A stretch of DNA of 64,000 nt from Amphiscolops sp. MND2022 (Eukaryota), in contig OZ076409.1 in assembly GCA_964187785.1 (NCBI GenBank), forward strand, positions 58,964,001-59,028,000, written 5' to 3'. The notes beneath the pieces were generated by a model. The model ran no database searches. It worked only from the letters and a program-made list of their open reading frames with translations, and was not told where the DNA came from. This document shows, piece after piece, positions 17,971 through 42,939 of the stretch; position 1 is the first letter of the stretch, and every line of letters starts with the position of its first letter. Made by a program: the position numbers and the translations under genes.

Positions 17971-18528
17971 GTCTGAACTAGGATTATCATACGTTTGTTT
18001 GATGCCAATTTTTGGGTTTTTTTACAAACCTGTGTGAATGTAACCAAATCGTGTCAAAGTTTAATTTTGGAGAAACATGGTGGAGTGACTTGGAGTAATT
18101 AGTCTGTTTTGGGGCAGACTAACAAATATGGAACAAAAATTCAACTTTGTTTGAAACAAAGAAATATTTGAAATAAATAAATATGAAACCCCTCTCATTA
18201 TGGTTTTTTGGAACGCAAATATCGAAACAATTCCAAAAACTGCGATGAAATATTGCTTTCTGCCTTCATCTTCTTGCCCAATGGAACTCACATTCTCATA
18301 TTTCACGGAAATGCTTACGGAAGACCGTCAAAGACTTGACATTTTTTATTTCTGTATGTTAATTCATCCAAGTTGATTAGAAGGTTTGAAAAACAGTGTT
18401 TTTTGTGTTTTAGTGTGAAAAATCGTGAATTTGGCTTGATTTTCGTGTTCTTAGCATGACATTTTCAGCGCGAGTTGTGCGAAAAAGTTGCGTGATTAGC
18501 TGACATGCCTGCCCAATACTCAAAGAAT

Positions 18529-19269
18529 TGTAACGACCCGCTAGCGACGCACATCTGGGAAGAGGGACAATGCCTAGTATGCTTAAACAGGAGACCGTTG
18601 TCTTACTACATCCCTAGACACTAATTTTTGTTCCCAAAATGGTCTCCAAGGGGGGCTATTCTTTCATCACAGGAGGCTCCTCTAGTTAGAGCTCCGAGGC
18701 GACGTGCCGGCACTCTCAAAGTCCGGACACGCCCCATAAGCCTGCAAAGAAACGAATCCTAGGTTCTTAACATACATTCCGGCCACCTCCTACATACTTC
18801 CGAGGTCCAAAAAAATATCTAACTGAAATACATTGTATTTGGGGAATTAGTTCTAAAATACAGATCTAGTAGATCAAACATTATTCAAATACTCTGTAAA
18901 CGGTGACAAAACACGGGGATAAGCCGCAATAACATTACAGTTTAGGGTCGGTCGTCAGTCTGGCTTCTGGTATCATTCCTCATCTTTGGGGCACAATGGT
19001 CTTATTTGCCCTTTTTTTGCCGAAACCCTGTCTTTTTCAGCTGGCACAATTCCTGATTCTCTCGCCTTCTGGGTGATGACATCTCGGACATTCACGTTCC
19101 TGGGTGGGGGTGGGGTCTTCTGATGTTGTTTTGCCTTGACTTTGCTTCTTCTACGGTTTTCTTACCTACCGGGTCGGCCATCATGAATGTGCTTGTTTGA
19201 TACCGCACATTTCGAATTTTTTATCGAAATTTTCAAAAACTTCTGCAACGTCGCTTGCCTGAAGTTACA
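18529..19269 (-). mobile_element. Solo LTR family B (741 bp), 3-bp flanking duplication AAT
   Basis: Reverse-complement homologue of the LTRs at 37804 and 42188; AAT|TGTAACG...GTTACA|AAT. Confidence 0.9.
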
Positions 19270-19461
19270 AATGATAGCGTACCGGTAGTGCGAACATTAG
19301 CAAAGCACTTGTAAACAAAATTGTTGCTGGTTTTACAAGTTATTCGTTTTCTTGATACTTTTGATAAGACTCTCACCAATATTTCTATAACGAATTTCAA
19401 GAGTTGTGTGTGAAGCAAGAATAAATAAGATCTTATCAAGGCTTTCAAGAGTAAACGGGAA

Positions 19462-20984
19462 TGTCACAGGCTACCGCCTGTGACTGCAATTACTACCAAA
19501 GTCTATTGGAAGGGGATAACACAAATACCCCTCCCGGAGTTTTGCCAATTTAGACTTATAGGACACTTAGTCCGAACAGCCACAACAAACATTGACTTTA
19601 CCATAATGGAATATGTTATAATTTAATACGCAATCTGTGTCTGTTATACTGAAAAGCTGCTGTAGTATTGTTATACAATGTAAATTTGCAGTAAATTAAT
19701 GTAAGGACAATTAGTACGTATACCGTAGTATGCAATACGGAAGGAAACAAGTTCAAATGAACTCATCCTCTAACCAAACGTACACGCATTACTAGACCTA
19801 TTGATCAATCAAATTGCAGTTTTTTGCTGTAGCTCCGCGGACTGAATGTCTGCCGCGATGGAAATAGTACGCATCTCCGCCAGCACAGTATTTGAATGAA
19901 GCTGCGTGGACCTAACGTCCACTACGGTTAATTATAGTGCTGATATGTAATCTCACATTTAATAAACATGAAACGTTGCAAACTAGTATTAGTTGTGGAA
20001 ATGAAATATTATTACATGTTATTTTATCTTGTCGGCTCAACCGACAAGTATCTCTTTGATGTACTGACGTCACTATGTCACAATTTCAAATCAGTGCTAT
20101 TTTTAGTATTTGCAACTATAAATAGTAACATGACATGCGGAATTTAGGCCGTCATCCCTCTCAGACTATAAATAGGGGGGACTAACGGTTCGAGGATCCT
20201 TTTTCGATATATCTCAATTACAATCAAGTTGCTACTGTTTCATTCTGGTTCAATTTCAACCTTCTGATTATAACTTGAAGCAGTGTTAATTTGTATCGTT
20301 ACTTCCACAATTCACTTTTGAAAAACTAACTTTCCTCCAATGCCATCTTCTAGGAAGAAAAAAAAGGCCAAAGAGAGACGCTTTAGGCAATTGAACATAA
20401 AGTCTGATGTTGAAAACGTAGATATAATATTACGAAGTTATTCGGGAGATGAAGAAAGAAATGACCAAGTGAAAGTGAATTAAATCTGGACCCAGGGTCC
20501 ATAAGGCCTCAGCAAAGTTCTAAGCTAGTTGGAGAAGACTTTAGATCATTACTAAATACAAATAGAAGAGAGAATAGTGAAATGACTATAGAGACAACTG
20601 GGATGATTAGCGAAGAAGTCTCTAATCAGGTACCTAGGAAACTTCATGAGATTAAATCAAGCCTGAATTCTCAGATTCAAGATGCAATTACAACAGCAAT
20701 AACTGAGAAAGTGCTCCCTGCAATCCAAAATACGTTAGATACGCAGGGGAGGGCTAAGTTCACCGTGGTGGACCGAGGGTCCAATGGGCTACATGAGGGC
20801 CCGACGGCGGCCATTTTCACCGCGGTGGACCGAAGGTCCAGTGGGCTACAACGGAATCCCGAAGTTGGAAAAACTAAGAAGACGTGGGAAAACCGCCCCA
20901 AAACGTGTTTTGAACAGGATAATTGTGGACAGATGTCTCGACAAAGTTCAGTAGACTCTTATAATAGTGAACAAAATTGCCACA
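19462..20984 (+). mobile_element. Solo LTR family A copy 2 (divergent subfamily, 1523 bp) containing an ORF from 20340
   Basis: GGGAA|TGTCACAGGC...GCCACA|GGGAA, a perfect 5-bp TSD; ORF MPSSRKKKKAKERR...LNSQIQDAITTAITEKVLPAIQN (frameshifted). Confidence 0.85.
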
Positions 20985-21652
20985 GGGAATAAGTAAGAAT
21001 ATGCGAGATCTTGGCAACAGTTGCCAGATATATACCACTGGTAACAACTCAACAATTGGCAGTTTAGCCTACTTTTAAGAAGAGCTATTTGGAGTTTTCT
21101 GTAGTAAAGAACGTCAATCCTTGCATTTTTGCATGCAATTGGCTAACACTTTTTAATCTTTTCTGTGGTCGTTAGGTGAACAAGAAAAAATTAGCTACTT
21201 AATTCATTTTTGGAGAACCTAGATCAAAAACTGCCAAGTAATCAAAAAGGCCAATTTTCCAATTTTTGAAGTTGCGAGCGTTTCTGCTGGCGAGCGCCTT
21301 TCGGTTACGTTCACACTTTTTCAGATTTTGCAGTTGTCTAAGTAATTCAGCGCTGAAAATGTCCAAGTGCAGAGCGGGTGTCTTTTTTTCCAAAAAAATA
21401 AATCTAGCCCATTTTTAAATAGTTACCAAGGAACATTCGGATAATTTAATTTTCCAAGAAAGCTTTTAGCTCGAACTTTTTGTTTGTTTGAGCGAACTTT
21501 CTTGTCCAAATTTCTAAATTGACCATTAAAGATGTCTTTAATGGTCAATTTAAAAGTTTGACATTTAATTTGTCAATTTAAAAATATGCTCACGCAGTTT
21601 TCATTTTGCAGGAAGCTTTCTAGCTGGTTCAAATGTTTTTATTTTTTAATAG

Positions 21653-21849
21653 GAAACCTTGTGGTCGTGGCAGTTATCATAACAAACAAGGCGATGCACA
21701 ATACTCCCAATATCTACATAGCCAGTGTGGCCATCAGTGACTTTGCTTTCCTCACCGTCTGCGTCCCCCTGAATATCTACGTCACCTTGGCCACAGATGG
21801 GTGGCAGCTTGGGTCCTTCGTGTGTGCGGGTATGCAGTACCTGATGTAT
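21653..21849 (+). CDS. Class A peptide GPCR exon (TM1 end, TM2, ECL1, TM3 start)
   Basis: ttttttaatag acceptor, gtaagt donor; GNLVVVAVIITNKAMHNTPNIYIASVAISDFAFLTVCVP...WQLGSFVCAGMQYLMY (GN, D2.50, WxLG..C motifs). Confidence 0.92.
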
Positions 21850-22167
21850 GTAAGTACCTTTTCATGTCAGCAGTCAATGGGCTACGATAATCAAAGCTAA
21901 GAATCTGCTACTGTTTTGAGCCAATCTAAAACGCCCAGTGAACACTGTCCATTTTTCTGCCCACTGCCATCAAAATGATAGATAATCACACTTTCTATTG
22001 AAGTTCAAAAACAAGCTTTTTGTGCACTCATATTTTCAGAACATCAAATTGCTTGAGTTGAGAGCTTTTGGATAACATTTTAGTACATTTAGAAATTCTG
22101 CAAAATAGACCAATGAGAACATTTTGTTTCCCGTACTTTCTTTCTCAAATAGAATGAACAAAAGATT

Positions 22168-23751
22168 TGTGAGGACTGAGATCCCCAGTGTCCCTAAGAT
22201 CAAATGCAGACCTGGAGTCTTTCTTGGCTATTTTCGTTTCCAATTAATTTGTTTGGCCATCGTTCTCTTAACTATTACCAGACGACCCGGATTCGGTGTC
22301 TCGGTGACTTGAAGACATTGAACCCATGATGTTTTGTATTTCTGGTATGACACTGTCATTGATAGAAGAATTTATAGCCCTATTGATCTGAGAATGCATC
22401 ACTGACATCAGGGAGTCCTTCTCCTGTGAAAGACGCATGTTAATCTCACTTGAGAATATTTCCATAGACTCAAGAAGTATATATCTTGCCTAGGAATTGT
22501 GTTCTCGCCACTAAAATCCCTAATAATATTCTCTTACGGCTTGGGAATGCTTGGGAAAAGGCTTCAGTGTAAGTATTACTGATTGAACCATTGATGGTAT
22601 TCGTAATTCTCTTCCAATGTGATTTGCATTTTCACTACCAAGTAATACGTCCGAATTTTCAAAGTCGGATATCATGTCCAGCTCTCCAGACCTCCTTGCT
22701 TTTGCTTTCTGTCTCCTTGTATATGGCATCAAAATTTTGTGAGAGAGTAATATTTTATTTCTCGAAAGTAACGATTGTGTACTTTCAACTATATTTATCA
22801 AAGTTGTCAAGCAGAATTGAGTCAGGGCCTTGCGTGGCTGTCTATATATACCCCAGGAAGGATGACTTCCCAAATTTAGGGCATCATGTTGCTATAACTA
22901 GACTCGCATCGACTAAAAATATAATCTTTTGATAGTATTAATGCCAATAAGTATTCTATACTCTATCAATAGCCTCGAAACCTAACGAGTATATATTGTT
23001 TACAAGGCCTTCTAGACTTCTCCAACATAACAGTAACTATAGCAACTATATACAAGAATCAAACCATTTACACGTTCATCTACATGCGCGCGCCCCAGTA
23101 CGGTAGATAGAACAAGTGTCTTACCTATGTAAAATGTTCCCATGATTTCACAGTTAAAGGGGTGAAGGGGGATTACATTTTGGCCGTATTTATAATGTAA
23201 TTTCATGGACTAAGTGTAGATTTTGACATGAAATCCATGTATAGGCAAAATCATGTATCATCATTTTTTCAAATGGACCAAAGAGGGGGGAACTCAGTTG
23301 CCTGTCTCAACTGTAATTTATTCAAGTCGCAGATGTTTTCATTCAGACTGCACTCTATTAGAGCACTATATTGTATTACTGTATCATCGCTTCAGTATTC
23401 AGAGAATAAAGCCGCAACTGGCTAATTACCATGGTCTTTTATTACATCACAGCACTAGGCCGTACTCGCCAGGCCGCGCCAGGCAAGAAAATGTTTCAAC
23501 GTGTTTCCTTTGTCTGTACGCTCAGTACGCCTTGGTGTCCAATTTTTATAATATTACCTGTACAAAATGCAACAATTCATCTTATTGTAAAGCAAAATAA
23601 CAATTGTGAATTTAATAACACAAACAAAGTATATGAGAAGTCTATGAATGGGGATTACCCATTCAGTCCAGGGGGACTGTCCCAGGCAGGGCCAGATGGA
23701 AATTGTACGACACAGAGTACCAATTACCATCGCAGGCGGCAGCCTGCGACA
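22168..23751 (-). mobile_element. Solo LTR family A copy 3 (1584 bp) containing an ORF from 22729
   Basis: Minus strand TGTCGCAGGC...CCTCACA; ORF MPYTRRQKAKARRS...RLSQEKDSLMSVMHSQINRAI; TSD degraded (AGATT/GTATT). Confidence 0.85.
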
Positions 23752-25459
23752 GTATTTACTTACACAGAGGAGGGAAATCACTCAAGGTGCATGGTTGTAT
23801 CCAAACATCTGCGGCGTCGAAGCCGAGGGAAGTGAAAAAAAGAAAAAAAATTCCAAGGTTCAAACTCCACATCTATGTCCGGATAACGGGTGCACCTAAC
23901 CAACTCAAACACCGGGAAAAAGTTAGAATACTTTTTGCAGTTGAAGTCACCACATGGAAAAGAAAGCCGCTATTTATTCAAGGTTTTTTATCGACAAATA
24001 AAACAAGTTGGAAAAGAACAAATCATTGTGAACCAATTTCATTATCGAGACTTTCCGTTTTTGCACGCAATTTTATCTGAATCACTACAAAAAAAATATT
24101 CATTATAAAATTACAGCTTCAAATAATGATTTTCAAAAAAAATGTCAGCAGCTCAGAACTTTAACTGAGTTTGGATTTCTGCTTCCATTTGTAACCATAT
24201 TTAGTTCAAAAGATTGATATTTATCAGGTTTGTTCATATGGAAGACTGATGAACCTGATTACTGTGACAAGTAAGTGAAATCGAAATGTAGCTATTTTGT
24301 ACACAAATTTTGAACGAAGCTCGGTTTGCTCTGCTGAAGCTCAAACGCAACTATTTTCTGAGGTCAAAACGTTTATCAAACTTAAATATCTTCATTATAA
24401 TTTTAACACAGTTTTGAACAAATGTCTCTCAAAAAACTATTGAGTCCAAGGGTTGCATTTTACAATCAATTTTCTTTTGCATTACTCATACTATGCTTTT
24501 AAATGAACAACCCTAGTCTTTTCAAAATACTACAGTGTGGTTTTCAAGAAAATTAAGAAAAACCCTCAGCGCCAAACAAAAATAAACAAAAGGAAACCTT
24601 TTGGTCTCATAAACGACTTTTCGTTCTCAAAAAAGACCCAAGAGTCAAAAATCACAAGGGGATCTTCATAGGATATAACAACAAACGAAAATGACTTATT
24701 GCCTGAGGAAAGGTTCAAGGAGGACAACGTTCGGTCTCATACAGCGTTTTATATCAAGCAAAATGGAAAGCTTTCTAAAAAAGCCTCTTCGGTCGCTAAC
24801 AAAACAAAGTCAACACTGAGATACATCACTTTCCGCTGATGACACCTCAGTATTTAACTTAGACTCACAAACCATCGTCAGTTCCAAAAACTGGCAACAG
24901 AAACAAATTATCAAATCAGGTTTTTATATCCACAAAGATGCTTACTGGTGTTTTAAAATTCTTTTGAAACTTTTCTTATTAATTATGAAATTATAACTTT
25001 TGTGGCCGCTATAATACAATTTAGGGACACAACGGGCATCTCAAATAAATTTGAGAATCATTTTTAACGACTTCACTAACGCAATCATGTTCGAATAACA
25101 GAACGGGAAGGTCTCAAGGCGGTGCCCTGTTTTCGGCTCAAAAGGAGCAGAGCTTTCAAAATATGCTTAATGCATTTCTGAATAAAATCTCTTAAATATA
25201 CCGAAAATTACCCAATGGGTACCCTGCGTGCTCAGACAACGCTTTTCTAAAAAAACCAAATTGACTGAAAATATTCTGGAGAAAAACGCATAGTAAAAAA
25301 AGTATTTGGGCCTGAAAACACTTTACACTTTTTTCTATCCAAAAATATCAAACAAACCAGTGCGAGGTCTGTGGTCTTACAAAAGTTTGTATCCGTAAAA
25401 GTCGAGCACTTTTTGTTACAAAACTGCCCGTAGAATATAATAAAAAGTTTAATTTAATT

Positions 25460-26000
25460 GCCCTGGAAATTTTTACATGCAGCAGACCTGCATGCAGGGT
25501 AATTTTTTTTATAAAACCTAGAAAATTCAGAGAGTTTCGGATAGTAAATCATGAACAATTACACTGCATTTTCCAATCCGGCTTATAAATTTGGAAATAA
25601 ATTCCACTACATTACCGACACAATCACTTTGTATTCACACTTTGTTTTCTCAACTCCCATATGATTTGATCACCGCTTCTCAAATAGGACGCTGAAGATG
25701 ACGCTAGTTTGTTGTTTACTTTGTGAATGAAGTTAATCTGCATTAAAATAGGCGGCAAATTTGCTGCTTTGTCTCAACTGCTTTTGAAATTAGAACTGAT
25801 GCATAATGGAACCTGCGAAACTCCGAGGCTTATAATCGCCTTCAAAAGGTTGATGAATCTTTCAAGCAGCTTGATAAAAGATGAATACAACAGAGAAATA
25901 TTTTCGCATGAAACTTTTCCTAAGTGTTTTAGAAAATCCTAACAAAAGTTGCTGGCAACATTAAAGTACATGCAAAAAGTTCAAGCAGATTCAACAAGGA
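25460..26000. repeat. Inverted copy of the 17432-17970 repeat
   Basis: See 17432-17970. Confidence 0.8.
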
Positions 26001-26360
26001 TGGGTATTCAATCGATAATGTCAAAAATTTAATAGCAAAAATTGTTCTGCTCTTCTTGTTCTCTCCCTAGAGAACCAACTTGGCACATTTATTTCCTCGA
26101 TTTTTTCACGTTTTGATTTCATTTTCTCTGTAAAACTAATTGTAAATGTTGCAAATTCAAAACAAAATCATTGTAAAAAGATTTCGATTGTCGATAACAT
26201 ATGAACGGAGTTTCAACTGAAATTTTAAAGCAGGTCAGGAGGTTTTTGCTTTTTCATGTTTTTCAAAACCACGTGATAAGAAAAAAGTCGAGAAAAGATT
26301 AATAGAAAAAAAAATATTATTAATCACAAAAATTTGAACAAAAGTCTATGTAGACGTACA

Positions 26361-26900
26361 AAAAAACCAGGAACGACCAAAGTTGGCGCTATATCTTAGG
26401 CTCAAAAAGCGCAAAAATTTAAAAAATTGTAAAAAGGGCGACACTTTGGGCTTTTTGGAGCTCCAATTTGTTGCAAAACATGAAAAGGGAAAATCATGAA
26501 TTGAAGGGGGATCAGTTGGAGACACCAAAAATCTTCGGTTGAAAAGATCAAAAATCAAGCTTTTTGAAACGTCAAACTGCCGAAAAATGTAAAAAGGGTC
26601 TCCTTTGGGATTTTTCAACAGCTATACAGTTGGAAGTTATCGAAACAATTGAAAGCGGGACCCTTTAGTGCAATCCAAAAATTTTCAAAAAAAGTCTCAT
26701 ACTGCCGAAAAAAGTGGAAACCGCCAAAATGAAAAAAGGCAAAGGGGGATCTTTGGTTTTTTTTCGTGGTTCTGGACGTCGGTTTTGTTTTTTAAGGCGA
26801 CGAGCGAAGCGAGATGCCTTATTGTTTGCGTCGGATTTTTTTTCGCCAAAAAGTGACATCCCTCTGCATTTGTAAAAGTTTCGGCTATTTTTCTCCAAGC
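26361..26900 (-). mobile_element. Second, diverged Helentron-like element, truncated next to the Gypsy fragment
   Basis: Shares CAAAGTYGGCG.TATATCT.AGGCTCAAAAAGCGCAAA and the internal repeats with 10237-10836. Confidence 0.55.
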
Positions 26901-26915
26901 CTATTTCTCCAAGCT

Positions 26916-27951
26916 AATACAGGTTTAGCGTGCCTCTTATTCGCTTTACGATCGACCGCGGCGGCCAAAAAGAATAGCTCCTTCGAACAAATATTTAATA
27001 TTTGGTCGCAAGCCAAATACCGTAAAGGAAATAATAACCGACATACCAAAACACTGTTTACAAAATGACCAAACTCTGAAGCTCTCTCCAGAAGAATTTC
27101 CAAAGGACGATGTCTCCACGATCTTCCTACGAGATCGAACCCGAAATACAAAACTTGAAGGTCATTTCAAGAAAAAGCCAGGGGCTATCGTTGCGGAATC
27201 GAGCCACACCATCACAAGGGAGACAAACAGAGGACAAGTGCTTTCAAAGCGAGACCTTGCCAAAAACGAAAGCGCGTCGCACAGCATAAAAACTAGCACA
27301 AAAAGAGGAAACAGCCATTCATTGGAGAGAAAAGTAGCACCACTAAAAGACGCAGAAGAAAGGAGCGAAATGGAGTTAGACAAATCCTTAAATTTCTTTG
27401 CAGCAAAAGATTACAAAACACGCCAAAACGAAACCGCTTTCCTAGAAGACAGATAAAACCGAGAAAATCCTTGGCGGGCCTACCAGACAATGACCCACCA
27501 AGAAATTGATGAATGGGTTAACAATTAGAAATCATCAGAGTCTGAACCTGAAAGAAAAATTACCATCATTAAATTTGAAACTGAACATAAACTCATACAG
27601 TATATTTAATAATAGTGTCTGTAAACATTCTCCTTTACAATCTTTTGGGCGGTAGCTTTAACCCCACCCAAACATTTCTGTTGGTATTATTTCTACTGTA
27701 ATGTTAATTACAGGCAAATAGTACGAACTTTATTCCGTAGTGAGGCAGGTGTGGCCGAAGCCATTGGCCAAGGTAAAAAACAAAATAGAACGATGCTAAA
27801 ATTTAATTGATAAACATAGTTAAACGTTTGATAAAGTACCTGTTTCATACGTCGTCCAAACAACACAAATGAAAAACAATGCAGCAAGTTGCATACTACA
27901 GTCGATTCGATGAATTCAATTTTTCTTAGCTCAGTGTTTTTGACTACAACA
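26916..27951 (+). mobile_element. Gypsy integrase C-terminus plus LTR end, direct repeat of 32138-33174
   Basis: About 1 kb of high-identity direct repeat ending CTACAACA, immediately followed by PBS-like TGGCGCTGCGAGC. Confidence 0.85.
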
Positions 27952-28476
27952 TGGCGCTGCGAGCTTTTGATCCTGACGTTGGAAAAACCAAAAATAGGGA
28001 TCAGCAGTAGCTGGTTTGGCGCTGTATTGGAATGACCCTCACCAAAATCCAAGCATCGAACGGAAGAAATGGTGCGATTTGTTCGCTGTGGCGATGACTG
28101 CTATATATTCAATCTCTATCGCAGAGGTACTGAGGACTGTGACAAATGAGGCTGATCGAAATAAAACCTTATTGAATAATGTTGATCATCCAGTAGCAGA
28201 GCGTAAGTGAGTCAGTGTACTTTATTGATCTCTGGGGGTTGCGGCACGGAAGTTCTTTACCGACAATTATCCAACAGTCAAAATCTCCGAAACAACACCA
28301 CAAGTATTACTGGATAATTGCAAGAGTACATTCGATACAAAACAGAATAGGACATTAGATCGTTTCAGACTAATGTCCAGAAAATAAATGCCGTCAGAGA
28401 CATTGGAACTGTTCTGGCACTCATTGAACGGAAAGGCCTCAGAATGCGATCTTGGGGCTCAAACTGACAGCCTCGT

Positions 28477-28801
28477 CATTACGATACACATGCCGGTACG
28501 AACTAGCAGGATCCTGCTAGTTCGATTTTTGTCCAATCAGAGCGCGAATATTTTTTTTGGAAGTTTTACACTTTTCTCACATTACGCGCATTGATAGGCC
28601 GTTACACTCGTTGATTTTGCTACGTACGTTGACTAGTTACACTAGTTGCCTACGCCCCGTCACTGGCGTAATGTGCCCTCTTTGTAATTGCAACCCGCAA
28701 TTGCAACATCCAAATCATCTTTCGGGGATGCTTTCGGTAGTGTACGTAGTTTCTCTTGTACAGTCAAATTGTTCATATTGTGGATGAAAATATCGTGTAC
28801 G
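28477..28801. mobile_element. CATTACG-family MITE remnant plus inverted duplication inserted in gag, flanked by GT duplication
   Basis: gag reads CTC GT|insert|GTA CAC GAT (L V H D); the insert starts CATTACGATACACATGCCG. Confidence 0.7.
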
Positions 28802-28940
28802 GTACACGATATTTTCATCCACAATATGAACAATTTGACTGTACAAGAGAAACTACGTACACTACCGAAAGCATCCCCGAAAGATGATTTGGATGTTGCA
28901 ATTGCGGGTTGCAATTACAAAGAGGGCACATTACGCCAGT
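28662..28940. repeat. Perfect palindrome, 139-bp arms with a 1-nt spacer
   Basis: Centre GTGTAC-G-GTACAC at 28801; identical ORFs on both strands in the ORF track. Confidence 0.95.
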
Positions 28941-31900
28941 AATCGTACGGAGAAACCAAAGTTTCGATAAAGAGGGAACGAAAAAGAAGGACTGTTTACG
29001 TTCTGGAAAAGAAGAAAGTTTTCAATAGAGCACCTGAAAGTATGCCCCGCAAAAGGCAAGAAATTCAACAAATGTAGAGTTTTGGGTCACTCTGGTCGTG
29101 TGTGCCGAAAACAGTAAAAACCACAAACTTCGCAGAAACAACCACCGTGACGAGTGAATTGGGTTGATGAGGAAAAAGACAATAATTACGAACAAGAACA
29201 AGAAAAACAATACGTTTTTGGCATCGATGGTGGTGGATCATCACCATAAATGATGAAATTTAAAATTAATGGAAAGAAAATTTCCTAATGATAGATTCGG
29301 GATCACCAGTGAAAATATTAAATCGAGAAGACTACAAAAAATATTGAAGTACCAAGTCTTGTTTGCACCCGCCTACCAAAGGACGAAAAATACGTAGATT
29401 ATAGCAAGAAGACAGTAAATATACTGGGATACAACTATTGTGAATTGTAGGTTGGCGGCAAATACAAAAAAGCGAGAATCTTGGTGGCACGACCGGGAGC
29501 AAAGTCAAATGTCGGCAGAGATTGGTTGAACTATTTACAATATCGCATCCATCCAAAAAGTAAAAAAAGTAGGATTCCCATTTCATCAATTTGTATAACT
29601 AAAACATTGCCACTAGGTCCATATGTAAACGAAATGCAAGCGGAATTTCCCGACCTGTTTGTTAGAAAGGGTAGAATAAAGTACTATTCCATGAAGGAAT
29701 GGTAATGAAACAACAGAAGTGCCGCCGCGTACCGTTCCAACTACAAGAGTCCGTAAAAAAGGGAAATAAATCAGCTATTGCAAGAAGGCCACATTGTTAA
29801 AGTACAAGACATCAAAGTGCATGTCTTCTTACAGCCCACAGTGGTTATGATTACCGTCGAGAAAGATCGGAGCGTCAAAATAGCCCTGGTTGCAAGGGAA
29901 CTGATAAAAAATGTTGTTAAAGATAAATACCCGATGCCGAGTCTTGACAATCTAATGGACATGATTGCAAAAACATGTGGAATAAGGATCAGGCAAGACC
30001 TTTTTCACCTCACTGGATTTGACGTATGCATACGGACCAGTAGAACTTAGCGAAGCCACGTCACCACGTCAAATAACCAGGGGCGTGCGACAGGAATATA
30101 CATATTCATAACAGGGTTCTACGGTCTCACAACCTTGGCTACGGAATTTCAAAGAATATTGGAATTAATATTGGCACGTATTAATCACAAATACATTTGC
30201 TTTTATAGATGATATTTATCAATTCTCACACATGGAATAGAAGATGAACACATCAAGAAAGTAAAGGATATATTGGAAAGACTCGACGAAGCAATCATAA
30301 TTTTGAAACTAGAAAAGTGCGCCTTCGCGGCGGAAAATATTGAGTTGGTCGGATATAAACTGTCACAGCAAGGCGTAGCGCGAATCAATAGTAAAGTACA
30401 AGGAATCCCTGAAAGACTGGAACCAACAATTTTAAAACATTAAAACAACTCTGATCGTTCCTGGCGCCGTTAACCAATTTGACAAATTCATCCCCAACTT
30501 AGCACAGCTGTGCTTTCCGTTCCGAAATTTGATAAAGAAGGATTACGAAAAGAATTGGGGTGGAGAACAGAAAAAGGAATTCAAAACAGTAAACGAAGAA
30601 ATTGAAAAACCAACCATGCTGAATCTCTTCAAACAACAATGCACTTTGAGGATCATTTGCGATGCAAGCAAATCTGGGCTGGGAGCTGTATTACAGCAAA
30701 AATAAAACAAAGGATGGAAACCCATTTCTTCCGCATCACGCTTTTTGACTGAATTAGAATCAAAATATTCCATAAATGAACTTGAATTACTTGCTATAGT
30801 ATCGTCAGCTACGTGTACGGAGTCCCATTCAAAATAACATCAGACCATAAAGCCTTAGCAACAGTGTTAAAGGGATAAGAAGCGAATCAAACATTTTCTA
30901 GCAGACTCACACGGTGGGTAGATCGCCTATTACCCTTTGACTTTGAGGTAATACACGGACCAAGTAGAACATTGGGCACAGCTAATTTTTTGTCTCGAAA
31001 GCCATCACCGATAAACGAAAGTTCCGTAAAATCAAGTACATTATGGGATGAATGGTTCACTGTAATTGTTGTTTCAGAATTAACAAAATCACTTCCTACT
31101 AATCAGACGTCAATCAGCGGCGGCCGTCAGCCAATGAAAAACGAGAGCGATGCGAATGAGAATTTAGCCAACGAAGGTGTGAACGAACCTGACGATACGC
31201 AATCAATAGAGCAAACAGTTAAAGACGCACTCAGCGAACAAACTGCCATGTCAAACAAGCGCGATTGAAGCGAGGCAAGCAAACTGCATGAAATTTCAAT
31301 TAAACCACCGGTCAAGAGACCTCCAACGATCGCATTATTAGACAAAACCTCGACAATTCCCCTCAAATCCAGCATGCAACGGATTGGAGAAAACATCCTG
31401 GCAGGGACGTACGAACACGGCCCACTACTACACTATTACAATCAATTATCGACATTCTAAAACATCACAACCAACAGTCGATAAACAAACTCCCGAAAGT
31501 CTGGCCACAGAGGTTCAACGAATTACGAATGGACGAACACGATTTCATTTCAGTGATGAGAAAATAGGCATCCCAGAAAAGCTCAGAAAACCCATTTTCA
31601 GAAGTTTTCACTGAGGTCATTCAGGACGTGACTCAATGCTACAAGCAGTAGCAGACATTTGGTGGCCACGGATTCACCGTGATATCGTCTCACTGGCACA
31701 GTCCTGCCCAATATGTCGACAAGCAGGTAAAAATTTAAAAACTTTAAAACTATCGGAAGTTGGAAACCTGCCCGCGGTGGATGCTCATAACGACGAATTA
31801 ATAATAGACTTCGGTGGACCTATTCAACTAGCACAAAAAATTAAGAATTACCTACTACTGTCCATAGATCCTAAAACCAATTGGCCGAACGCAGCGTTTG

Positions 31901-34648
31901 TAGCAAAACCTACCGTTGAACGAATCGTAATTTTTCTAAACGCACACATCGCACAATTTGCTGTTCCAAAATGAATTCGCATCGACTCCGCGGCGAAGTG
32001 TTTAAACAATTTTGCCAAGAACATTTCATTCATGATATCGAATTTTTGACCACCGCGGGAATAGCGAAAAAGAACGGTTAATTAGAACCATCAATGAGAG
32101 ATTAAGGTCCGATAAAACAATTATCACCGAAAAAGGAAATACAGGTTTAGCGCGCCTCTTATTCGCTTTACAACCGACCGCGGCGGCCAATAAGAATAGC
32201 CCCTTCGAACAAATATTTGGTCGCAAGCCAAATACCGTAAAGGAAATAATAACCGACATACCAAAACACTGTTTAGAAAATGACCAAACTCTGGAGCTCT
32301 TTCCAGAGAAATTTCCAAAGGACGATGACTCCACGATCTTCCTACGAGGTCGAACCCGAAATACAAAACTTGAAGTCCAATTCAAGAAAAAGCCAGGGGC
32401 TATCGTTGCCGAATCGAGCCACACCATCACAAGGGAGACAAACAGAGGACGACAAGTGCTATCAAAACGAGACCTTGCCAAAAATAAAAGCGCGTCGCAC
32501 AGCCCAAAAACTAGCACAAAAATAGGAAACAGCCATTCATTGGAGAGAAAAGTAGCAGCACTAAAAGACGCAGAAGAAAGGAGCGAAATGGAGTTAGACA
32601 AACCACTAAATTTCTTTGCAGCAAAAGATTACAAAACACGCATCCCACCAAAACGAAACCGCTTTCCTAGAAAACAGATAAAACCGAGAAAATCCTTGGC
32701 GGGCCTACCAGACAAGGACCCATCAAGAAATTGATGAATGGGTTAACAATTAGAAATCATCAGATTCTGAAACTGAAAGAAAAATTACCATCATTAAATC
32801 TGAAACTGAACATAAACTCATACAGTATTTTTAATAATAGTGTCTGTAAACATTCTCCTTTACAATCTTTTGGGCGGTAGCTTTAACCCCACCCAAACAT
32901 TTCTGTTGGTATTATTTCTACTGTAATCTTAATTACAATTAAATAGTACGAACTTTATCCCGTATTGAGGCAGGTGTGGCCGAGGCCATTGGCCAAGGTC
33001 AAAAACAAAAAAGAACGATGCTAACATTTAATTGATAAACATTGTGAAACATTTATTAAAGTACCTGTTTATACGTCGTCGAAACGACACAAATGAAAAA
33101 CATTTCAGTAAGTTGCCTTTACATACTACAGTCGATTCGATCAATTCAATAGCTCAGTGTTTTTGACTACAAGAATGCCTTTTAGGCTCCCTAAACGTTT
33201 TTTTTGCGAACCGAAAAGTTCACAAAACTCGTTCATTTTGTTGATTATAGATTTTTTCTTGGTGTATCTTCTTCCTTTTCCTTCCGCACGCGTTAAATTA
33301 TTGCTAATATTGAAACAAAATTCAAAACTCAGTAGCCGGTTTTATGAGTTATTTTTATCAAAAAAAATGGTCTCAAAAAGTGCTTTGAATTTTACTAAAA
33401 TTAATTGGATAAACGTTCAGTTTTTAAAATGAGTGGGTAAACTTTCAGTTTTAAAATGTGTGGGACTTGGCGAAGGAAAAAGAACTAGTTTTCCAATTAG
33501 GAAAAAAAGGACTTAAATCAACATTTTATGTCGAGTCGACACTTTTAGGCAAATTAGATTTTTATTTTAATTGGATAGAGTTCTTACATAACGCTTGAAC
33601 TATTCAGCTAATTAACAAGTTGACTAAGCAAATTAAATTCATCTTTTTGAATCGTAATTTGCAGTTTTTTCTCAGTTTGAAGAGTCTTAAGTCAAGGAAC
33701 TTTTCAATGCACAACTGACCAACTTTAATCAGAAACTAGATTGAAGTCTCTTTCCAAACGTTTGTTCTAAAATAAAAATTTCTCGATCAAAATTGTGGTT
33801 ACATGTCAGAATAACTAAAGTACCATTCCGTTAATGTTTTCGATAAGTTTTTGCTATTTCGAAACGCTTCGAGCTTTGCGTATTTCCTAATTTCGGTACT
33901 TTCCTAATTGTTTGCAAGAAAGTTTACTGCAAAAATATGGGCGGAAAATACCGATTCATTGAATCTCGAACACTCTCAGAAAGTCTTTTGAAGTCAACTT
34001 GTTGAATCAGATTCATGACGCCTTTTTTCTATAAAACAAAGTTTGGTTCCATTTACATACTCTCTTTTTTAGACGTGAAACGACAAATTCCAGTTCACCG
34101 TGTCTGTATTTCATTGGTGTATAAGAGCATCACGTTCACCAAAAAAATTTAAACGATGGTCTTTTTCATGCGTTTTTATCCATGATCATCCATTGCATGA
34201 TGGCGTTTCATCAATAATCATTCATGAATCATGGATATCTTACTATGATTATGGAATGATTCTCGCCATTGCGAACCCATGAATCAGGGAAAAATCATGG
34301 CCTGTAAATTTGGGAGAATTATGTAAGTTAGCACTTTGTAATTTTAAGTTAGAAAAATCTAAAATAAATTTTTTGAATCTGTGTATCTCATCTAGTTAGC
34401 TATTTCATTGCTAATCTCTGTTGTTACTTCATTGCTAATCTACTGTGCTTCCTCATGAATAGATAAACAAACGTGTCACTCAAAGATTAGAAAGAGCTTG
34501 TCTCAATAATAGACATAAACAAAAAACTGCAATGACGTGATCGTACGATATCTGAAAACCAAAACCGCTGACTTCTCAACGAGAAACTTTTCAGCTAATT
34601 GCATTAAGGTTTGATCAACAGGTCTCATTCGAAAAATTCCTCAAACCC

Positions 34649-35963
34649 TGTAAGGACCTAAGGTCCACCGTGTTTTTCAGGTCGAAAGCAGACCTACAAT
34701 CCTTTTTTTGTAATTTTAGTTCTAAACCCAGTTTTTCCTTTGTTATTCTCCTGATTGTTCGATGACGAACCGGACTCAGTGTCCCTGTTCCCTGAAGATA
34801 ATGAACTTGCCAATTTTTGAATCTCAGGTTACACTCTTCCAGCTATCGCAGAGCTTATGGCCCTGTTGATCTGCGAGCGCATCATGGACATCATTAAGTC
34901 CATTTCCTGGGACAATCTAAAATTGATTTTGTTTGTGTAAGTTTCCTTTGACTCAATCAATCTATCTTGCTTAGGGAGTGCATTTTCGCGGTTGAAACCT
35001 CCAAACTCATCCTCTTGAGAGGAATTCTCCTAGGATGTGAATTGGGCTCAGCGTCATATTGATTAGCTGATCCGTAAATTATATAGCTAGTTCTCTTTCA
35101 ATGGGATTAATAAGTTCATTCCCAATCATCACATCTGTTTTGTCGAAATCAGACATCTTGTCCATCCCTCTAGATATACTAGCTTTCGCCTTTTGTCTTC
35201 TTGTTGCTTGTTGAAGGCAGAAGAAATCGTTACAAGGGAAGAATTCAATTTATACTGTCTGGCAAATCAAAGTTAACGTAACAACGTTTTCGTTTATTAA
35301 TGTATATGAATGGATGACTATATATACAAAACAATACTTATATGTCACATCAATGAACCAATTTCATATCCAGCATTGATCATTGTGTTTTCCAAACGTT
35401 GGTGTGGGATTTCATATGGATGAAATTTTCATTTTTTTTACATTTGCATGATTAGTTGATGCAAGCATAAGCATCAAATTGGAATTAATCAGTTTTATTA
35501 GGTTCAATATTAGACTGAACCTATATTTCAATCTAATACGGGACTAGCTGTCCGCTCGCCTTCGGCGTACAATTCAACAGCATGCATGACCGTACGATGC
35601 CTTTAATTAATAGCACTAAATGAATAGAGCACTGAGCTAAATGGAAGCACCTGATTGGTCAAAATGATTTTTGGACAGCGTGTCCAGGGCGACAGACGAA
35701 CACGTTTCCTCAGCCTGTACGCCTTCGTGTGCAATTATCAGTAATGTAGTAATACAAAGACAATACATCTCTATAAACGCTTTACATGTTCAATTATATA
35801 TTTCTAGTTTGACAAAAGCAGTTTTGTTTGAAGTAAGTTGGTCTCTCCACCCTGCTCGATTGACTGGGAATTCGTAAATTTTATCACAGTGGAAGCGTCC
35901 CTGGTAGTGCACTAGGTCGGCTTGCGTCGATGGTGTAAACGTTGCCATCACATGCCTGGCACA
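34649..35963 (-). mobile_element. Solo LTR family A copy 4 (1315 bp) with a decayed ORF
   Basis: AACCC|TGTAAGG...GGCACA|AACCC, a perfect 5-bp TSD; minus strand encodes RLSQEMDLMMSMMRSQINRAISSAIAGRV.PEIQ. Confidence 0.85.
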
Positions 35964-37803
35964 AACCCAGTGTTGTAATCCATTGTAGGTGCAATTACTT
36001 TCACTTGTGTTCATATATCAAATCATGAATCAGAACCAAAAGGAGCCTTTGAACCAAATTGAATCCAGAAAGAAAATTGTTTGAAAGTACTCTAGTGTGT
36101 GTAGTTTAAACAACATGCTAAGCATTTCGCTCATTTTCCCTTACAAGATTTTTTGGCACTGCATGATATTCAACTTTTCGATTATCAACGAATAGAATGT
36201 TTACACTACGACACATTAAAAAGGGCTGAATTTATTCGCGGAAAAGGGTCCTTATTGAAAAATGATGATGTATTGCATTTAAAAAACCTAGAAAGTTTTG
36301 TTTCATTGGTATAATGATTACTAAATGATCACAGAAATTTTCTATGACAAAAATGGAATTAGACACAGAGATCCACCAACTCTAATCTTTCTCAATTTTC
36401 TCAAAAACTCACGGGACATAAATTCCGAGCCAAGTAAATGATTGGCTTTAGAATTCCGCTCTAAAAAGAGCTACAACAAAAAATAAATTAGAAGACCTGT
36501 TTTAACCTGAGAAAGAGTGATTCAAAAATGTAGTTGCAACTACCGTTGTCGCACAGCTCAAGCGCTATTGTGAAGAGGCTATTCAAAGTACAACGTTTAA
36601 AAAACTCTACTGGTATCTGGTCCCAACTAATCACTGGTGCTGGAGCGTATTAAAATTACCAGAAAAACATGATTTTCAAACAATTCAGGAGACTGTTCGG
36701 CCTGAAACAAAAAACATTCTTTTTTTCCTTTTTGAGAAAAACTGCATGAATGACAATATGATGCTTGAGAATTCAATCCCCAGCGCACTACTAGTCATGC
36801 AGAAAAATTCCAGGGCTTCCAATCATTGAGCAAGATATTGGAAAAAAAAGATATTTTTGGACATTTTCTTCATAGAAAGCAAAGAGGCCCAAAAAGAAGA
36901 AGAGCAAAATGGTACAAGCACAAGGGAAAGTCGTCTTTCGAAAATAAATCTTCTTCGGTAAAAAATTTAAAACAACCACCGCTTCAAAGAAACATTTGAA
37001 CATGGTTGGCTTTGTACACTAATCATCCAGAAACAAGCTTTGCAAAACCTATGAAGCCGACTTTTGGAAACTTTTTTCTACTAGAAAACTAAACCGGTAT
37101 CAGAAATATGTTTGAAGAAATGGCCTTCAAAGATTTTGGCAGATGTGACGAATGATGCGAAAAAAGATATAGAAATCGAAAAGGGCACTAATAGGTAGAG
37201 CTAATAGGACAAATATCTAACAAAACATGGTAAAATGTATAATAAAACATTGGCTTTATTACTGTAACAAAAAACTGCTAAATTATGTGAAAAAGAAACA
37301 AATTAACAATTCAAAGGGAACCAAAAATGTTCGGTTTTCGGTTGCATAGACACTAAAGATTTTCACAACACTGTCTTATTTGAGAGAATGACGTTTGTCA
37401 GGCTCGGAGAGTCCATTTTTGAAAATGATCGCTACACGTCGCAACTCACAATTGGACATTTTTGAGGAAACTCAAGTCCAGAGCTGTCCATTTTGATAAA
37501 AGACCGGAATTTTTTCTTATAGACATTCCCATGCTTCTCGAGCTTGCAAAAAAACTTTATTGGTCGCGATAACTTGTGCAATTTTATCCTGGCCAATTGC
37601 GTAAGTCAGCTGCTGTACAATAGGGTCTTTGATTGAAAGCGATTTAATGCAGGCCCTATATGGTATTCAGTCAAGTTGACCTTGAAACTTGTCTACGGTA
37701 CACCCGCAATTTTTTGAATGTGGACACTTTGCATAAATTTTAGAACAATTCTCAAAAAGTCAGGTGAATATTTAGCCTTTTCCGTTAAATTGATTTCTTT
37801 ATT

Positions 37804-40800
37804 TGTAACGTCAGGCAAAAGACATTGCAGAAGTTTTTGAAAATTTCGATCAAAAATTCGAAATGTGCGACATCAAACAAGCACATTCAAGATGGCCGAC
37901 CCAGCAGGTACGAAAACCGTAGAGGAAGCAAAATAAAGGCAAAACACCACCAGAAGATCCCACCCCACCACCCAGGAACGAGAATGTCCGAGATGTCATC
38001 ACCCAGAAGGCGTGAGAATCAGGAATTCTGCCACCTGACAGCAAAAAGACAGGGTTTTGGCAGAAAAGTGCCAAATGAGACCATTGTGCCCCGAAGATGA
38101 GGAATGATGCCAGAGGCAGGAAGCCGATGATCGCCACCGAAATGTAACTGTATACTTTATTGGGGCCTATCCCCACCTGTTTTGACTGTTTATAGCGTAT
38201 TTGGATAATGTTTGACCTACTAGGTCCTCATTTTAGTCCTTATTCACTCATATAATGTATTTCAGTTAGACACCTTTTTGGACCTCGGAAGTATGTAGGA
38301 GATAGCAGGAACGCATTAGGAACCTAGGATACGTTTTTACAGGCTTGTGGGGCGTGTCCGGACTTTGAGAGTGCCGGCACGTCGCTTCGGAGCTCTAACT
38401 AGAGAAGCCTCCTTAGACGTTAGAAAAGTCCCCCTTGGAGACCATTTTGGGATCAAAAACTAGTGTCTAGGTATGTAAGAAGACAACGGTCTCCTGTTTG
38501 AGCATCCTAGGCATTGTCCCTCTTCCTAGATGTGCGTCGCTAGCCGGTCGTTACATCTGGAATAGTTTTTATGGCGACCACAGAGGGATATTTTTCATAT
38601 TGCGTACAGGTAGGAGCAACTTCTGCTTTCCGGCCCCGAAGGGTCCAGATCTAGGAAAACGTTTTGGGAGGGTCCTAGATTATTTTTATAGCATTTTTCT
38701 GGCCCTCTGGGCTTTGTACTAGTGTTATTCCTGCGTTTTCCCCGTGTTTCTGAGGTCTACTTAGAGAAATTAACCGTTCTTAACAGTGTACCCCCTTTTT
38801 CCTCACTAAAACCTAATAAAAAAGCTTATCCGGCCTATCCGGAACGTGTTTTAAAGGGTTTTCTAGCTTATTTTCAGCTAATTTGCAATGTATGGGGACA
38901 GAGAGGACGAGCGCCGAAGGTTCCCACCAGCTGTGATGACGTGGTGACGTCCTACACAACCATTCCTCCCACGCCCCTGTGATTGCAGTACATCACGTCA
39001 GACGGGTGAAATCGTCTTTTTTCTTAATTTAACGGCCCAAAAAGAGTATTCCCAGGCCTACCACCATTATAACTAACTGAGAAAAATACCCATAGGGTAT
39101 TCCGATCAGTTGTTAAAAAATTTGAGCTCAAAAACCTCGAAAATAACGTTAGTTATAGCTCAATTACCGAAATTTTCAATTTTGAAAATAAATATTTCAT
39201 CAAACAGAGTAAGGCCAGTGGGAATACTAAAAAAACGTTCCAACAGACCCCCTGGGTCAGGAACAAAAAACTTTGCAGGGCCATTTTTCCAAAAATAGCG
39301 AAAAATTAAGCAATTTCTGTTAAAAAATCGTCAAATTTGGCCATTTTGACCCAACTTGACGAGGGCTAAGCCTTGGACACTAGCTCCCAAGCTTCTGAAT
39401 CAGCCCAAAAAACTTTTCCCCCAACTTGGTAGCACGAAACACTACTACCAAGTTGTTTTTTAAGGCCCCCCAATAGAAATTGAAACTTTAATAACTTGTT
39501 TCTTTTGATATACATAGATCTGAGCAGAGGACCCCATAGACCTGAGCGATATAACACCAAAAATAATAATTGAACGAACCCCAACCCCTTAAAATAAGTT
39601 GTCACACTCTCCCACAGTACTATTGGAACAATCCCAAACGCCCAAGAACCGATAAATAAAAATTTCTTGGTGAAAACACGTTATTTCAGTATTGTTCCGA
39701 GAGTGTAAAAAGTGCAACTTGAAAAATTTTTGATAGACCCTATTTGGAACCTACCAGGTTTCGCTTGCTTATTTTCTGTTAGTATATACCGTAACGTTAC
39801 AAACGCAGAAAACCGCGAGTGATTCCAACCAGTGGTTGTCGAGAAATAGCCGAAAACGCGTTATTTTTGCGACATTTTGGGAACCATATAGTAGTGCTTC
39901 CAGCACAAGCCGAAATCTCTCCTAGTAGGAGCAGCCTCAAACGGATTGCACCATTGTGTAGACCATAAAAAGTTACGTTAGTGGTGTAATTTTCGTAGCG
40001 CTAGCACTACTAGTGATTGAGAAATCTTAGCCGCAGTTTTGCTCAAAAATCGTGTGAAAATGTCGAAAAATTCGAATTTTAGTTGAGCATTGTGCAATAC
40101 CTCGCAGGTATCCCAACACTAAAATTCTTGCATTTTTGTGCACACGGCACTGGATCACGACGATTTGTGCAATTTGAGCAGCCGGCTACTAGCCAAAGCT
40201 GAGAAATTGACATTTTTGTGATTTTTGACCCGAAAAAGTGGTACCTCTGGTACATCAAGGTTTTGTCACTTCATATCGCCAGATGTTGATCAAGGCACCT
40301 CGCCGCTCTGTTTTTCTGTTACGTAGGCAAAAGTTACGCTCGCATGCAAAATTTCAGGTGGCTGAGACGCCTCGAAGGCGAATTTGACCACTTTTTGTGA
40401 ATTCCACGACATAGTCAATTTTTCAGTGAACATTGTTAAGTGGCCGTGACACCCACAGGTTCAATTTTGACCCAATCGGAGTATCATTCCCCACGATTCA
40501 GCCACTGTATTAGACGGTGTGAAGTTTTCAGATCGCTAGCAGCGCTAGAAGTGATTTTCACCTTCCCCGGAGGTGCATGTTGACAAGAAAATTGTTGATT
40601 TTGGACATTTTTGCAAAAAATCACATAATTTTTCTCAGACTACGTGCCAGTGAGGGCCAAGACGACCCAATTAGCATACCGAGCGCCCTCAGGACGTCTT
40701 CTTGAATCACTTTGATTAGTGCTAGGCTGACCCTAAGATGTCGGGTCTCTGAGAAAACCGGTCTGCGAGACATAGAGGTGAAAAACCGAAAATGGAAATT

Positions 40801-42939
40801 CGCTTCCTGACTGCTATCAAAGTCACCCAAGTGCAATCTATCCATTGCGAACATGCATGCGCGACGCTTTTTGAACCCCGTGGGTGCAAGAGCACGTTTA
40901 TAGGCACTTTTAGAGGTTCAGACTTTGAACGCAGTGCGTCTCAAAACAGAACAACAAGTACACTGGTGACTGCCATAGTGGAAAAAGAACGCTTTTTCTG
41001 ACCGTACTACGATCGTAAGGCAAGAAACTACTTCAAACTCAGTGTCTCTCCTCCTACTCACCCCAAGGTCTACCCGTAGTCCCTATTTACATTTTGGCTA
41101 TCACTTGTGCTCTCCAGAAACATGGCAACATGAGTGACAAGCGGACATTTCAGACAATCTAACATCTGTAGCCAAGCAGGCTTCTCAAAAAATTAGTCTT
41201 CGCTGCTCAATTCATGCCTAAGGTGTACCTTGGTGCTCGGTACCACAGTTGCGTGAACCATGTCGATGTGAAAACACCGGACAAGAGATTGGCCCGGGGA
41301 GTACCCATACTCTCCCGAGAGAAGTCAACACCAAGCATGATGAAACACCTAGAGCTTCGAAGCTCTGAGAACTGCTTGGCCAGCGGCCGTGCTTTTAGAA
41401 CCCGAATGATTGCTCTGGAACTTGTTTTTAATGCCGAAGACTGTTTTCATGATCTATCATGCCTGATTTTTGACTTTTATTGGTTCTGCTCTATCATCGT
41501 TAGTGACATTGTCCCCTCTTGAGAAGTAGTTTGTTTCCATCTCTTGCATATACGCTGGTGCTTGTACTACCTAGACAATAACTTTAACTGGGCGTACATT
41601 GCGGACACAATAGATTGAATAGTTCCTCATTTTTAGTGATATTTTTGATTTTTTGAGGCCTGTTTCACCATTAGTGCTAGTTATTGTGCAGTTTCTGTTG
41701 GCCCTGAACTACGACACTTTTGCAAGACCAACGACACTTTTGCAAGACCACAGCTGTTACTTTCATTTTTCGCTTTTCAAGTGCTATCGTGCATTTTGTA
41801 AAACCTAACCTATCAGGTGGGCCCCTGGCCAGTGCCAAACCTGTTGTGATGAGTGCTTTTTATGCAGATGCAATAAGGTGCTAAAAATTTTGAAATTTTG
41901 GTGCGAAATTAAAAGTTTGAAATTGTTTTGAATATAAAGCTAAGTGTCTAAAGTTGCTAATATTTTTCCAGTGCAAGAACCCGTTGTTGGTGTGGAATCG
42001 AAGGAAGCCTGCTAGGCTGGCAAAAACTCATGTTTTTGGGCAATAACGTGTTTTTGGGCAATGACTTCCATGTAGATTCCTGACGTACCATGTTGCAACA
42101 GTATCACTGGATCACTGGATGGTGGCAACCAAGATGTGAACGTCCTCTCTCGTTTGTCGAGGACGACAAACTACGGCCCGGGGAGGATGTAACGTCAGGC
42201 AAAAGACGTTGCAGAAGTTTTTGAAAATTTCGATCAAAAATTCGAAATGTGCGACATCAAACAAGCACATTCAAGATGGCCGACCCAGCAGGTACGAAAA
42301 CCGTAGAGGAAGCAAAATAAAGGCAAAACACCACCAGAAGATCCCACCCAACCACCCAGGAACGAGAATGTCCGAGATGTCATCACCCAGAAGGCGTGAG
42401 AATCAGGAATTCTGCCACCTGACAGCAAAAAGACAGGGTTTTGGCAGAAAAGTGCCAAATGAGACCATTGTGCCCCGAAGATGAGGAATGATGCCAGAGG
42501 CTGGAAGCCGATGATCGCCACCGAAATGTAACTGTATACTTTATTGGGGCCTATCCCCACCTGTTTTGACTGTTTATAGCGTATTTGGATAATGTTTGAC
42601 CTACTAGGTCCTCATTTTAGTCCTTATTCACTCATATAATGTATTTCAGTTAGACACCTTTTTGGACCTCGGAAGTATGTAGGAGATAGCAGGAACGCAT
42701 TAGGAACCTAGGATACGTTTTTACAGGCTTGTGGGGCGTGTCCGGACTTTGAGAGTGCCGGCACGTCGCTTCGGAGCTCTAACTAGAGAAGCCTCCTTAG
42801 ACGTTAGAAAAGTCCCCCTTGGAGACCATTTTGGGATCAAAAACTAGTGTCTAGGTATGTAGTAAGACAACGGTCTCCTGTTTAAGCATCCTAGGCATTG
42901 TCCCTCTTCCTAGATGTGCGTCGCTAGCCGGTCGTTACA
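37804..42939 (+). mobile_element. Young non-autonomous two-LTR retroelement (LARD-like), family B
   Basis: 752-bp LTRs at 37804-38555 and 42188-42939 differing at about 6 positions; PBS at 38572; PPT GGGGAGGA before 42188; no ORF longer than ~100 aa in the 3.6 kb interior; ATT on both flanks. Confidence 0.93.
38572..38589 (+). other. Primer binding site, tRNA-Arg-like
   Basis: TGGCGACCACAGAGGGAT resembles the complement of a tRNA-Arg 3' end (recalled as TGGCGACCACGAAGGGAT); it lies 16 nt downstream of the 5' LTR. Confidence 0.6.

Follow-up and report, generated by a model that had tools for sequence, protein, structure and literature searches.

We propose that family B, an LTR retrotransposon family in the 64-kb window (the whole stretch of DNA that was analysed), is probably a Gypsy lineage with TG…CA termini whose integrase would, independently of Troyka, act on A/T-rich target sites with a stagger of 3 bp. 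The 3-bp stagger is favoured because 3 bp is the only length at which the flanks match at both sites, across two subfamilies. The 3-bp observation itself is real and is unlikely to be a product of chance.

Family B LTRs and their putative flanking duplications

A profile search of the 64-kb window recovered four family B LTRs and no further significant match, all four (4/4) bearing TGTAAC..GTTACA termini. Two of them, each of 752 bp and running TGTAAC...GTTACA, bound a young non-autonomous element of 5.1 kb at 37804-42939 (+), with the 5' LTR at 37804..38555 (+) and the 3' LTR at 42188..42939 (+); they are 99.2% identical, with six substitutions and no indel. The third is a solo LTR of 741 bp at 18529..19269 (-) from a sister subfamily, 85.5% identical to the young LTR. 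The fourth, of 707 bp at 57409..58115 (-), is a 3' LTR and belongs to an older, third copy (copy 3), which the sequence-only reading had left unused; its 5' LTR lies beyond the window, and its identity to the other family B LTRs is 79-83% in the 3' half and 41-60% in the 5' half. Since the young and solo insertions come from different subfamilies (85.5%), they are independent events, and the span 18529..42939 under which the sequence-only reading gathered its evidence does take in both, but as two separate insertions (solo LTR and young element) and not as one element.

The boundaries of the young element were set by its inner junctions, where the polypurine tract (PPT) is followed by TGTAAC at 42188 and GTTACA is followed by the leader at 38555. 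Because these junctions fix the boundaries, the LTR ends are known independently of the flanks, and a longer target-site duplication (TSD) masked by shifted LTR boundaries is ruled out. A homopolymer assembly error behind the 3-bp flanks was also rejected, as several errors would be needed and yet the young LTRs differ by no indel.

The young element is flanked by two copies of ATT, the left at 37801..37803 (+) and the right at 42940..42942 (+), which form a putative 3-bp TSD; its flanks read TTTATT / ATTAAA, with 0, 3, 4 and 3 mismatches at k = 3, 4, 5 and 6. The solo LTR, which lies on the minus strand, has AAT on the plus strand on both sides (3' flank 18526..18528, 5' flank 19270..19272), which is ATT in element orientation; its flanks in that orientation read ATCATT / ATTCTT, with 0, 3, 4 and 2 mismatches at the same lengths. 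A 3-bp match is thus present at 2/2 sites with both flanks, ATT each time in element orientation, and a 4-6-bp match at 0/2. Copy 3 offers a 3' flank alone, which begins TTT. These comparisons bear out what had been read by eye, namely ATT/TGT...ACA/ATT around a young element whose 4-, 5- and 6-bp flanks fail to match at an LTR identity of ~99%, and AAT/.../AAT around the solo LTR; the tabulation of family B TSDs that had been recommended, carried out within the window on four LTRs, likewise gave two sites with both flanks, both of 3 bp only.

How far chance could produce such flanks depends on the model. Under the local composition of the 500-bp flanks a random 3-mer match has p = 0.021 at each site, and among 200,000 random position pairs a match at 3 bp only occurred with a frequency of 0.018, or 3.4e-4 for both sites; in the least favourable case, in which each trimer is constrained to A/T letters only, p is 0.14 and 0.13, or ~0.018 jointly, giving a joint chance for two sites of 3e-4 to 0.018. 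These values refer to n = 2 sites, both A/T-rich, in a window chosen on account of the 3-bp match itself. A rough Bayes sketch returned a posterior of 0.36-0.999 for a 3-bp rule, given inputs that we assumed (priors of 1e-4 to 1e-2, backgrounds of 0.25-1%).

It is unlikely that family B is instead an ordinary 4-6-bp Gypsy family in which both true duplications were lost, by inter-copy recombination, junction deletion or mis-joined assembly, and in which the 3-bp matches arose by chance in A/T-rich DNA. Such losses would agree with the lack of any recovered flank continuity at either site within the window, with the appreciable chance of an all-A/T trimer match (0.13-0.14), with the coincidences that are selected when many windows are scanned, and with the 6-bp flanks of the solo LTR, which differ at two positions only. 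They would nevertheless require two lost duplications as well as two chance matches, both ATT in element orientation, at a young element with near-identical LTRs and exact termini. Decay of a 4-6-bp TSD at 3-4 positions by point mutation is untenable for the young element because its LTRs have diverged by only 0.8%. In maize, furthermore, apparent 3-bp TSDs make up a background of 0.25% (108/43,226 intact elements, in the accessible part of the source; 10.1101/137141). We consider it quite improbable, too, that the family has a mixed or relaxed stagger, with 3-bp duplications alongside 4- or 5-bp ones and two 3-bp cases drawn. Two sites only are compatible with such a mixture, RSV/ASLV mixes 5 and 6 bp according to an excerpt (PMC9410886), and one Troyka insertion has a 4-bp TSD (PMC12440569); against it, TSD length has been called invariant for each retrovirus in the available portion of another study (PMC2857682), and the two sites here agree in length across two subfamilies.

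Among the flank paralogues within the window, neither insertion yielded an empty site or left-right flank continuity; the right-flank paralogue of the solo LTR at ~55006-55137 aligns only from 19 bp past the junction, with the left flank unmatched. The suggestion that a host Tc1 relic could supply the empty site of the young element did not hold within the window, where we found neither a paralogue nor a terminal inverted repeat that extends across the insertion site. The relic itself was read by eye, from the right flank alone, and Pfam lends it no support: a decayed Tc1/IS630-like transposase can be discerned at 43200-44100 (-), the young element lying ~0.3 kb past its last recognisable codons, and an inverted repeat closing this relic scored 33 vs a shuffled mean of 35. 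No further family B relatives were found in metagenome, viral and prokaryote-genome scans, and no TSD control from another family was measurable within the window. The candidate for such a control is family A at 26.9-33.2 kb, but its LTR 5' ends are not delimited. Family A is a decayed Gypsy element with ~1,050-bp LTRs at 92% identity and remnants of RT, RNase H and H2C2; an additional Gypsy RT/RNase H remnant lies at 1410-2090.

The window contains several other features. A rhodopsin-family GPCR exon at 21562-21897 (+), most like peptide receptors, marks the host as an animal. A MITE-like family at 3853-4303, 12274-12717 and 28476-28546 has CATTACG..CGTAATG ends, and its flanks (TTT/..../TTT and CCT/..../CTT) suggest a DNA transposon with a 3-bp TSD. 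Self-BLAST revealed near-perfect long palindromes (98-100%) at 8502-8631, 28662-28940 and 56693-56916 (130, 279 and 224 bp). A dispersed repeat of ~3.5 kb occurs in inverted orientation at 9274-13031 and 51225-54335 (~70% identity), a 370-bp direct repeat pair (93%) at 47804-48170 and 50680-51045, and tandem arrays of 29- and 22-bp units at 51769-52072 and 57152-57305.

Interior of the young element, copy 3 and their coding relatives

The internal region of the young element (38556..42187, +; 3,632 bp) is LARD-like, a deletion derivative without gag, RT or IN, and its ORFs of at least 75 aa contain no Pfam domain. Profile and tblastn searches located a 33-codon trace of the C-terminal tail of Gag-Pol at 41232..41330 (+), in element orientation. 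The trace has a profile score of 17.7 bits (E 3e-7; the best of 50 shuffles scored -0.7 bits), and it was the sole match when nine family proteins were compared with the interior by tblastn, with 14/24 residues identical to positions 2501-2524 of P0129, one of the full-length relatives described below. Because this trace is kept in an interior that has no gag, RT or IN, the young element is, judged from its sequence, a non-coding deletion derivative of the Gypsy lineage of copy 3.

An 18-nt primer-binding site (PBS) lies at 38572..38589 (+) and begins 16 nt past the 5' LTR instead of about 2 nt. Its complement terminates in CCA and fits the geometry of a tRNA 3' end; it is the only tRNA-like 18-nt PBS, and we take it to be a putative tRNA-Arg site. 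A self-priming PBS was discarded, as it matches just 7-8 nt of low complexity. Immediately beyond the LTR ends the first 2 nt are symmetric (GA/TGT, ACA/TC). The unprocessed right end of the element may be unusually long, because the PBS begins 16 nt past the LTR despite this 2-nt symmetry. At the other end of the interior, a hairpin with the polypurine tract at ~42140..42187 (+) is conserved in copy 3 at ~58116..58164 (-), with 93% identity over 45 bp; in both copies the stem-loop pairs over the polypurine tract, and the folding z-scores are -3.0 and -3.7.

Copy 3 retains two decayed coding regions. The first, at 62813..63989 (-), is the C-terminal tail of a Ty3/Gypsy Gag-Pol, 53-57% identical to P0129 and P0144, with RT and IN past the window edge. 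P0129 and P0144 are intact single-frame Gag-Pol proteins of ~2,970 aa with the domain order protease, RT, RNase H, H2C2 and rve; after the integrase, P0129 continues with a tail of ~770 aa (2200-2974) that includes RGRP repeats and a cysteine cluster. At its C-terminus this tail probably carries a degenerate macro domain, which we regard as a lead only: a Pfam Macro match lies past the integrase in 2/8 other relatives scanned, and the protein atlas returned a 0.86 lead for the Pol tail, with Macro on 15% of members. The second region, at 58977..62494 (-), is an extra ORF in an env-like position, interrupted by stops and frameshifts, of ~1,360-1,430 aa and without Pfam domains. Its intact relatives fall into clusters of 342, 118, 51 and 240 members (the four largest of seven looked up). 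The extra ORF of ~1,370 aa has a single hydrophobic stretch, and its relatives P0009-P0012 gave no Pfam, protein-atlas or fold match; an SGNH-like stretch can be seen by eye at about 455-620 of P0010. Structure models of the Pol tail and the extra ORF were poor (mean pLDDT 36 and 32), and Foldseek returned nothing at E <= 0.001: the Pol tail drew weak, recurring macro/TARG1 rows, and the extra ORF drew noise. The autonomous partner is predicted to be ~15 kb long and to consist of an LTR, the single ~2,970-aa Gag-Pol, the ~1,370-aa extra ORF and a second LTR, and it would have moved the young element in trans.

Copy 3, together with the trace kept by the young element, places family B in a Ty3/Gypsy lineage. 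The Ty3/Gypsy hallmarks found are the PR-RT-RH-IN order in P0129/P0144 and TG..CA LTRs with PBS and PPT; the 4-6-bp TSD, a typical but not a defining feature, was seen at 0/2 sites. The RT-RH region has Ty3 as its best solved-structure match (E 1e-106), followed by a caulimovirus (9e-49) and a foamy virus (1e-32), in a set of comparators that did not include Troyka. No chromodomain match was obtained in P0129/P0144, and no tether domain was seen in them. Among named database entries, the closest are Gypsy polyproteins from Cordylochernes scorpioides and Globodera rostochiensis (27-33% across the stretches that match), and in a tree of 49 integrase cores with few named rows the family falls into a clade separate from the named database matches (branch 100/99). 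A BEL/Pao affiliation, guessed from the PPT and the displaced PBS, was rejected since the models that match P0129/P0144 at E <= 0.01 are all of the Gypsy type (RT, RNase H and H2C2), with no BEL-type Pol or Gag domain among them.

Integrase loop and the proposed 3-bp stagger

The cDNA ends are first trimmed by integrase to CA-3' and then attached to phosphates of the target in staggered positions, and this stagger equals the TSD length. We propose that, at A/T-rich sites (ATT, ATT and the 3' flank starting TTT), the family B integrase would attach the processed TG...CA ends to phosphates of the target spaced by 3 bp, that gap repair would then yield the 3-bp duplication, and that 3 bp would be the rule for the whole family. 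A 3-bp stagger might require the target to be bent more sharply than it is by foamy virus with its 4 bp, and such a bend would fit the all-A/T targets, as far as three trimers suggest. In the accessible parts of two studies, the retroviral stagger is 4-6 bp and TSD length tracks target bending, a shorter TSD going with a sharper bend and more central flexibility (PMC4422553, PMC9410886).

Two candidate contributors to this geometry may be named, a lineage-specific 2-residue insertion in an integrase loop before helix α1 and the AT-hook-like RGRP motifs in the Pol tail. The integrases in question belong to relatives whose Pol tails share just 53-57% identity with that of copy 3, and are not those of family B itself. 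The integrase core was covered by 126/155 candidate proteins, and with the reference, 118/127 rows with both aspartates were counted. The loop that links strand 3 to helix α1 is eight residues long in all ten rows at or above 60% identity (10/10) and six in 108/108 more distant rows, and the D-35-E spacing is identical in the 8- and 6-residue-loop rows. In the integrase tree, whose 49 cores are the 45 closest after removal of four near-copies plus four named ones, the five long-loop rows make up one side of a 99/92 branch inside the unnamed clade. The 8-residue loop counts as one evolutionary event, because the ten rows include five near-identical proteins. Alignment with the foamy-virus integrase puts the 2-residue insertion just before the start of helix α1. 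This position presumably contacts the target backbone, an assumption we base on residue numbering and on the MMTV contacts cited next. There, so far as the excerpts go, the target is proposed to be levered by backbone contacts that include MMTV Gly96 and Thr99 (PMC4422553, PMC9410886). As for the second candidate, RGRP motifs occur in 33/45 family proteins and look AT-hook-like by eye, with no Pfam match to an AT-hook in the Pol tail.

Taken as a whole chain, it is a tentative and rather doubtful idea that a large, recently active, apparently undescribed Gypsy clade with a giant Gag-Pol, a macro-like tail and a 1,370-aa orphan ORF gained a 3-bp stagger independently of Troyka while keeping TG..CA ends, and that this change maps to the 2-residue integrase loop insertion marking the clade. 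If the chain were true, sister lineages with and without the insertion would constitute a natural experiment on TSD length. The 3-bp stagger, if true, would give an integrase with a shorter stagger than any retroviral intasome studied, for which 4 bp is the minimum, and the close sister lineages with a 6-residue loop would make the stagger question testable. Structure-based LTR finders that demand a 4-6-bp TSD would tend to drop the family, whose relatives amount to hundreds of database members.

Comparison with Troyka and other known systems

The sequence-only reading had stated that Troyka elements make 3-bp TSDs, which is correct (PMC12440569). According to the same source, Troyka elements have CG..CG ends, LTRs of 100-400 bp, a CX2CX8-10HX4C knuckle and no GPF/Y motif, and other LTR retrotransposons are said to yield TSDs of 4-6 bp; this 2025 survey uses the 3-bp TSD as part of its case for Troyka as a separate superfamily. 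Kuafuorterviruses take in the Troyka elements, as stated in the portion of the work available (PMC11673190). Of five testable Troyka features family B shows one, the 3-bp TSD (2/2 sites, provisional), and lacks four. The CG..CG termini (CGCCA / TGGCG) are absent, as 4/4 LTRs have TGTAAC..GTTACA, and LTR lengths of 752, 752, 741 and 707 bp fall outside 100-400 bp. The Troyka knuckle is absent in 2/2 full-length relatives, which have the canonical CX2CX4.X4C spacing with the His replaced (gag itself lies outside the window). Finally, a GPH at P0129 2170 aligns to the GPF of Ty3, a motif of the GPF/Y type that Troyka is without.

It is accordingly extremely improbable that family B represents a Troyka element whose ends are atypical. 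The 3-bp flanks would suit such an element, and numerous non-autonomous derivatives are known in Troyka (PMC12440569), but TGT..ACA termini stand against CG..CG ends in a group in which 573/603 LTRs start with CGCCA (PMC12440569), LTRs of 707-752 bp stand against 100-400 bp, and the relatives have a GPF/Y-type motif and no Troyka knuckle. The link to Troyka that had been drawn for family B is thus not borne out, termini, LTR length, Gag knuckle and integrase motif all being wrong for it; of the suggested "unusual integration geometry or lineage", the geometry remains the best reading, on two sites, and the Troyka lineage falls away. The likeness to Troyka and the Kuafuorterviruses is confined to the 3-bp TSD, the animal host and the non-autonomous derivatives, and the differences extend over termini, LTR length, Gag knuckle spacing, GPF/Y motif and element size. 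On the preferred reading of an independent 3-bp stagger, the resemblance to Troyka would be convergent, and a TG..CA Gypsy family with a 3-bp TSD would make the trait a weaker classifier. We came across no LTR family other than Troyka with 3-bp TSDs in our literature search, which in part reached sources as excerpts and did not extend to Repbase or subscription journals, so a prior description is possible.

Other systems share single features with family B. In having an additional, non-envelope ORF that follows pol and precedes the 3' LTR, family B recalls the bdelloid elements Juno and Vesta, as described in the part of the source available (PMC5408684), although no sequence or fold match was found between Juno/Vesta ORF3 and the extra ORF here. 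Like LARD-type elements, the young element has an extended non-coding interior enclosed by intact LTRs, a PBS and a PPT; it differs in its size of 5.1 kb, compared with 5.5-9 kb in the accessible part of the maize study (10.1101/137141), and in the short pol trace it has kept. The closest likeness is to Ty3/Gypsy elements (Metaviridae, such as yeast Ty3), with which family B and its relatives share TG..CA LTRs, a tRNA-type PBS, a PPT, the order PR-RT-RH-IN and, in the integrase of the relatives, H2C2, D,D-35-E and a GPF/Y-type motif. Unlike typical Ty3/Gypsy elements, family B has an apparent 3-bp TSD and a PBS 16 nt from the LTR, and its relatives have a ~2,970-aa Gag-Pol with a ~770-aa tail, a ~1,370-aa extra ORF and a 2-residue insertion in the integrase loop.
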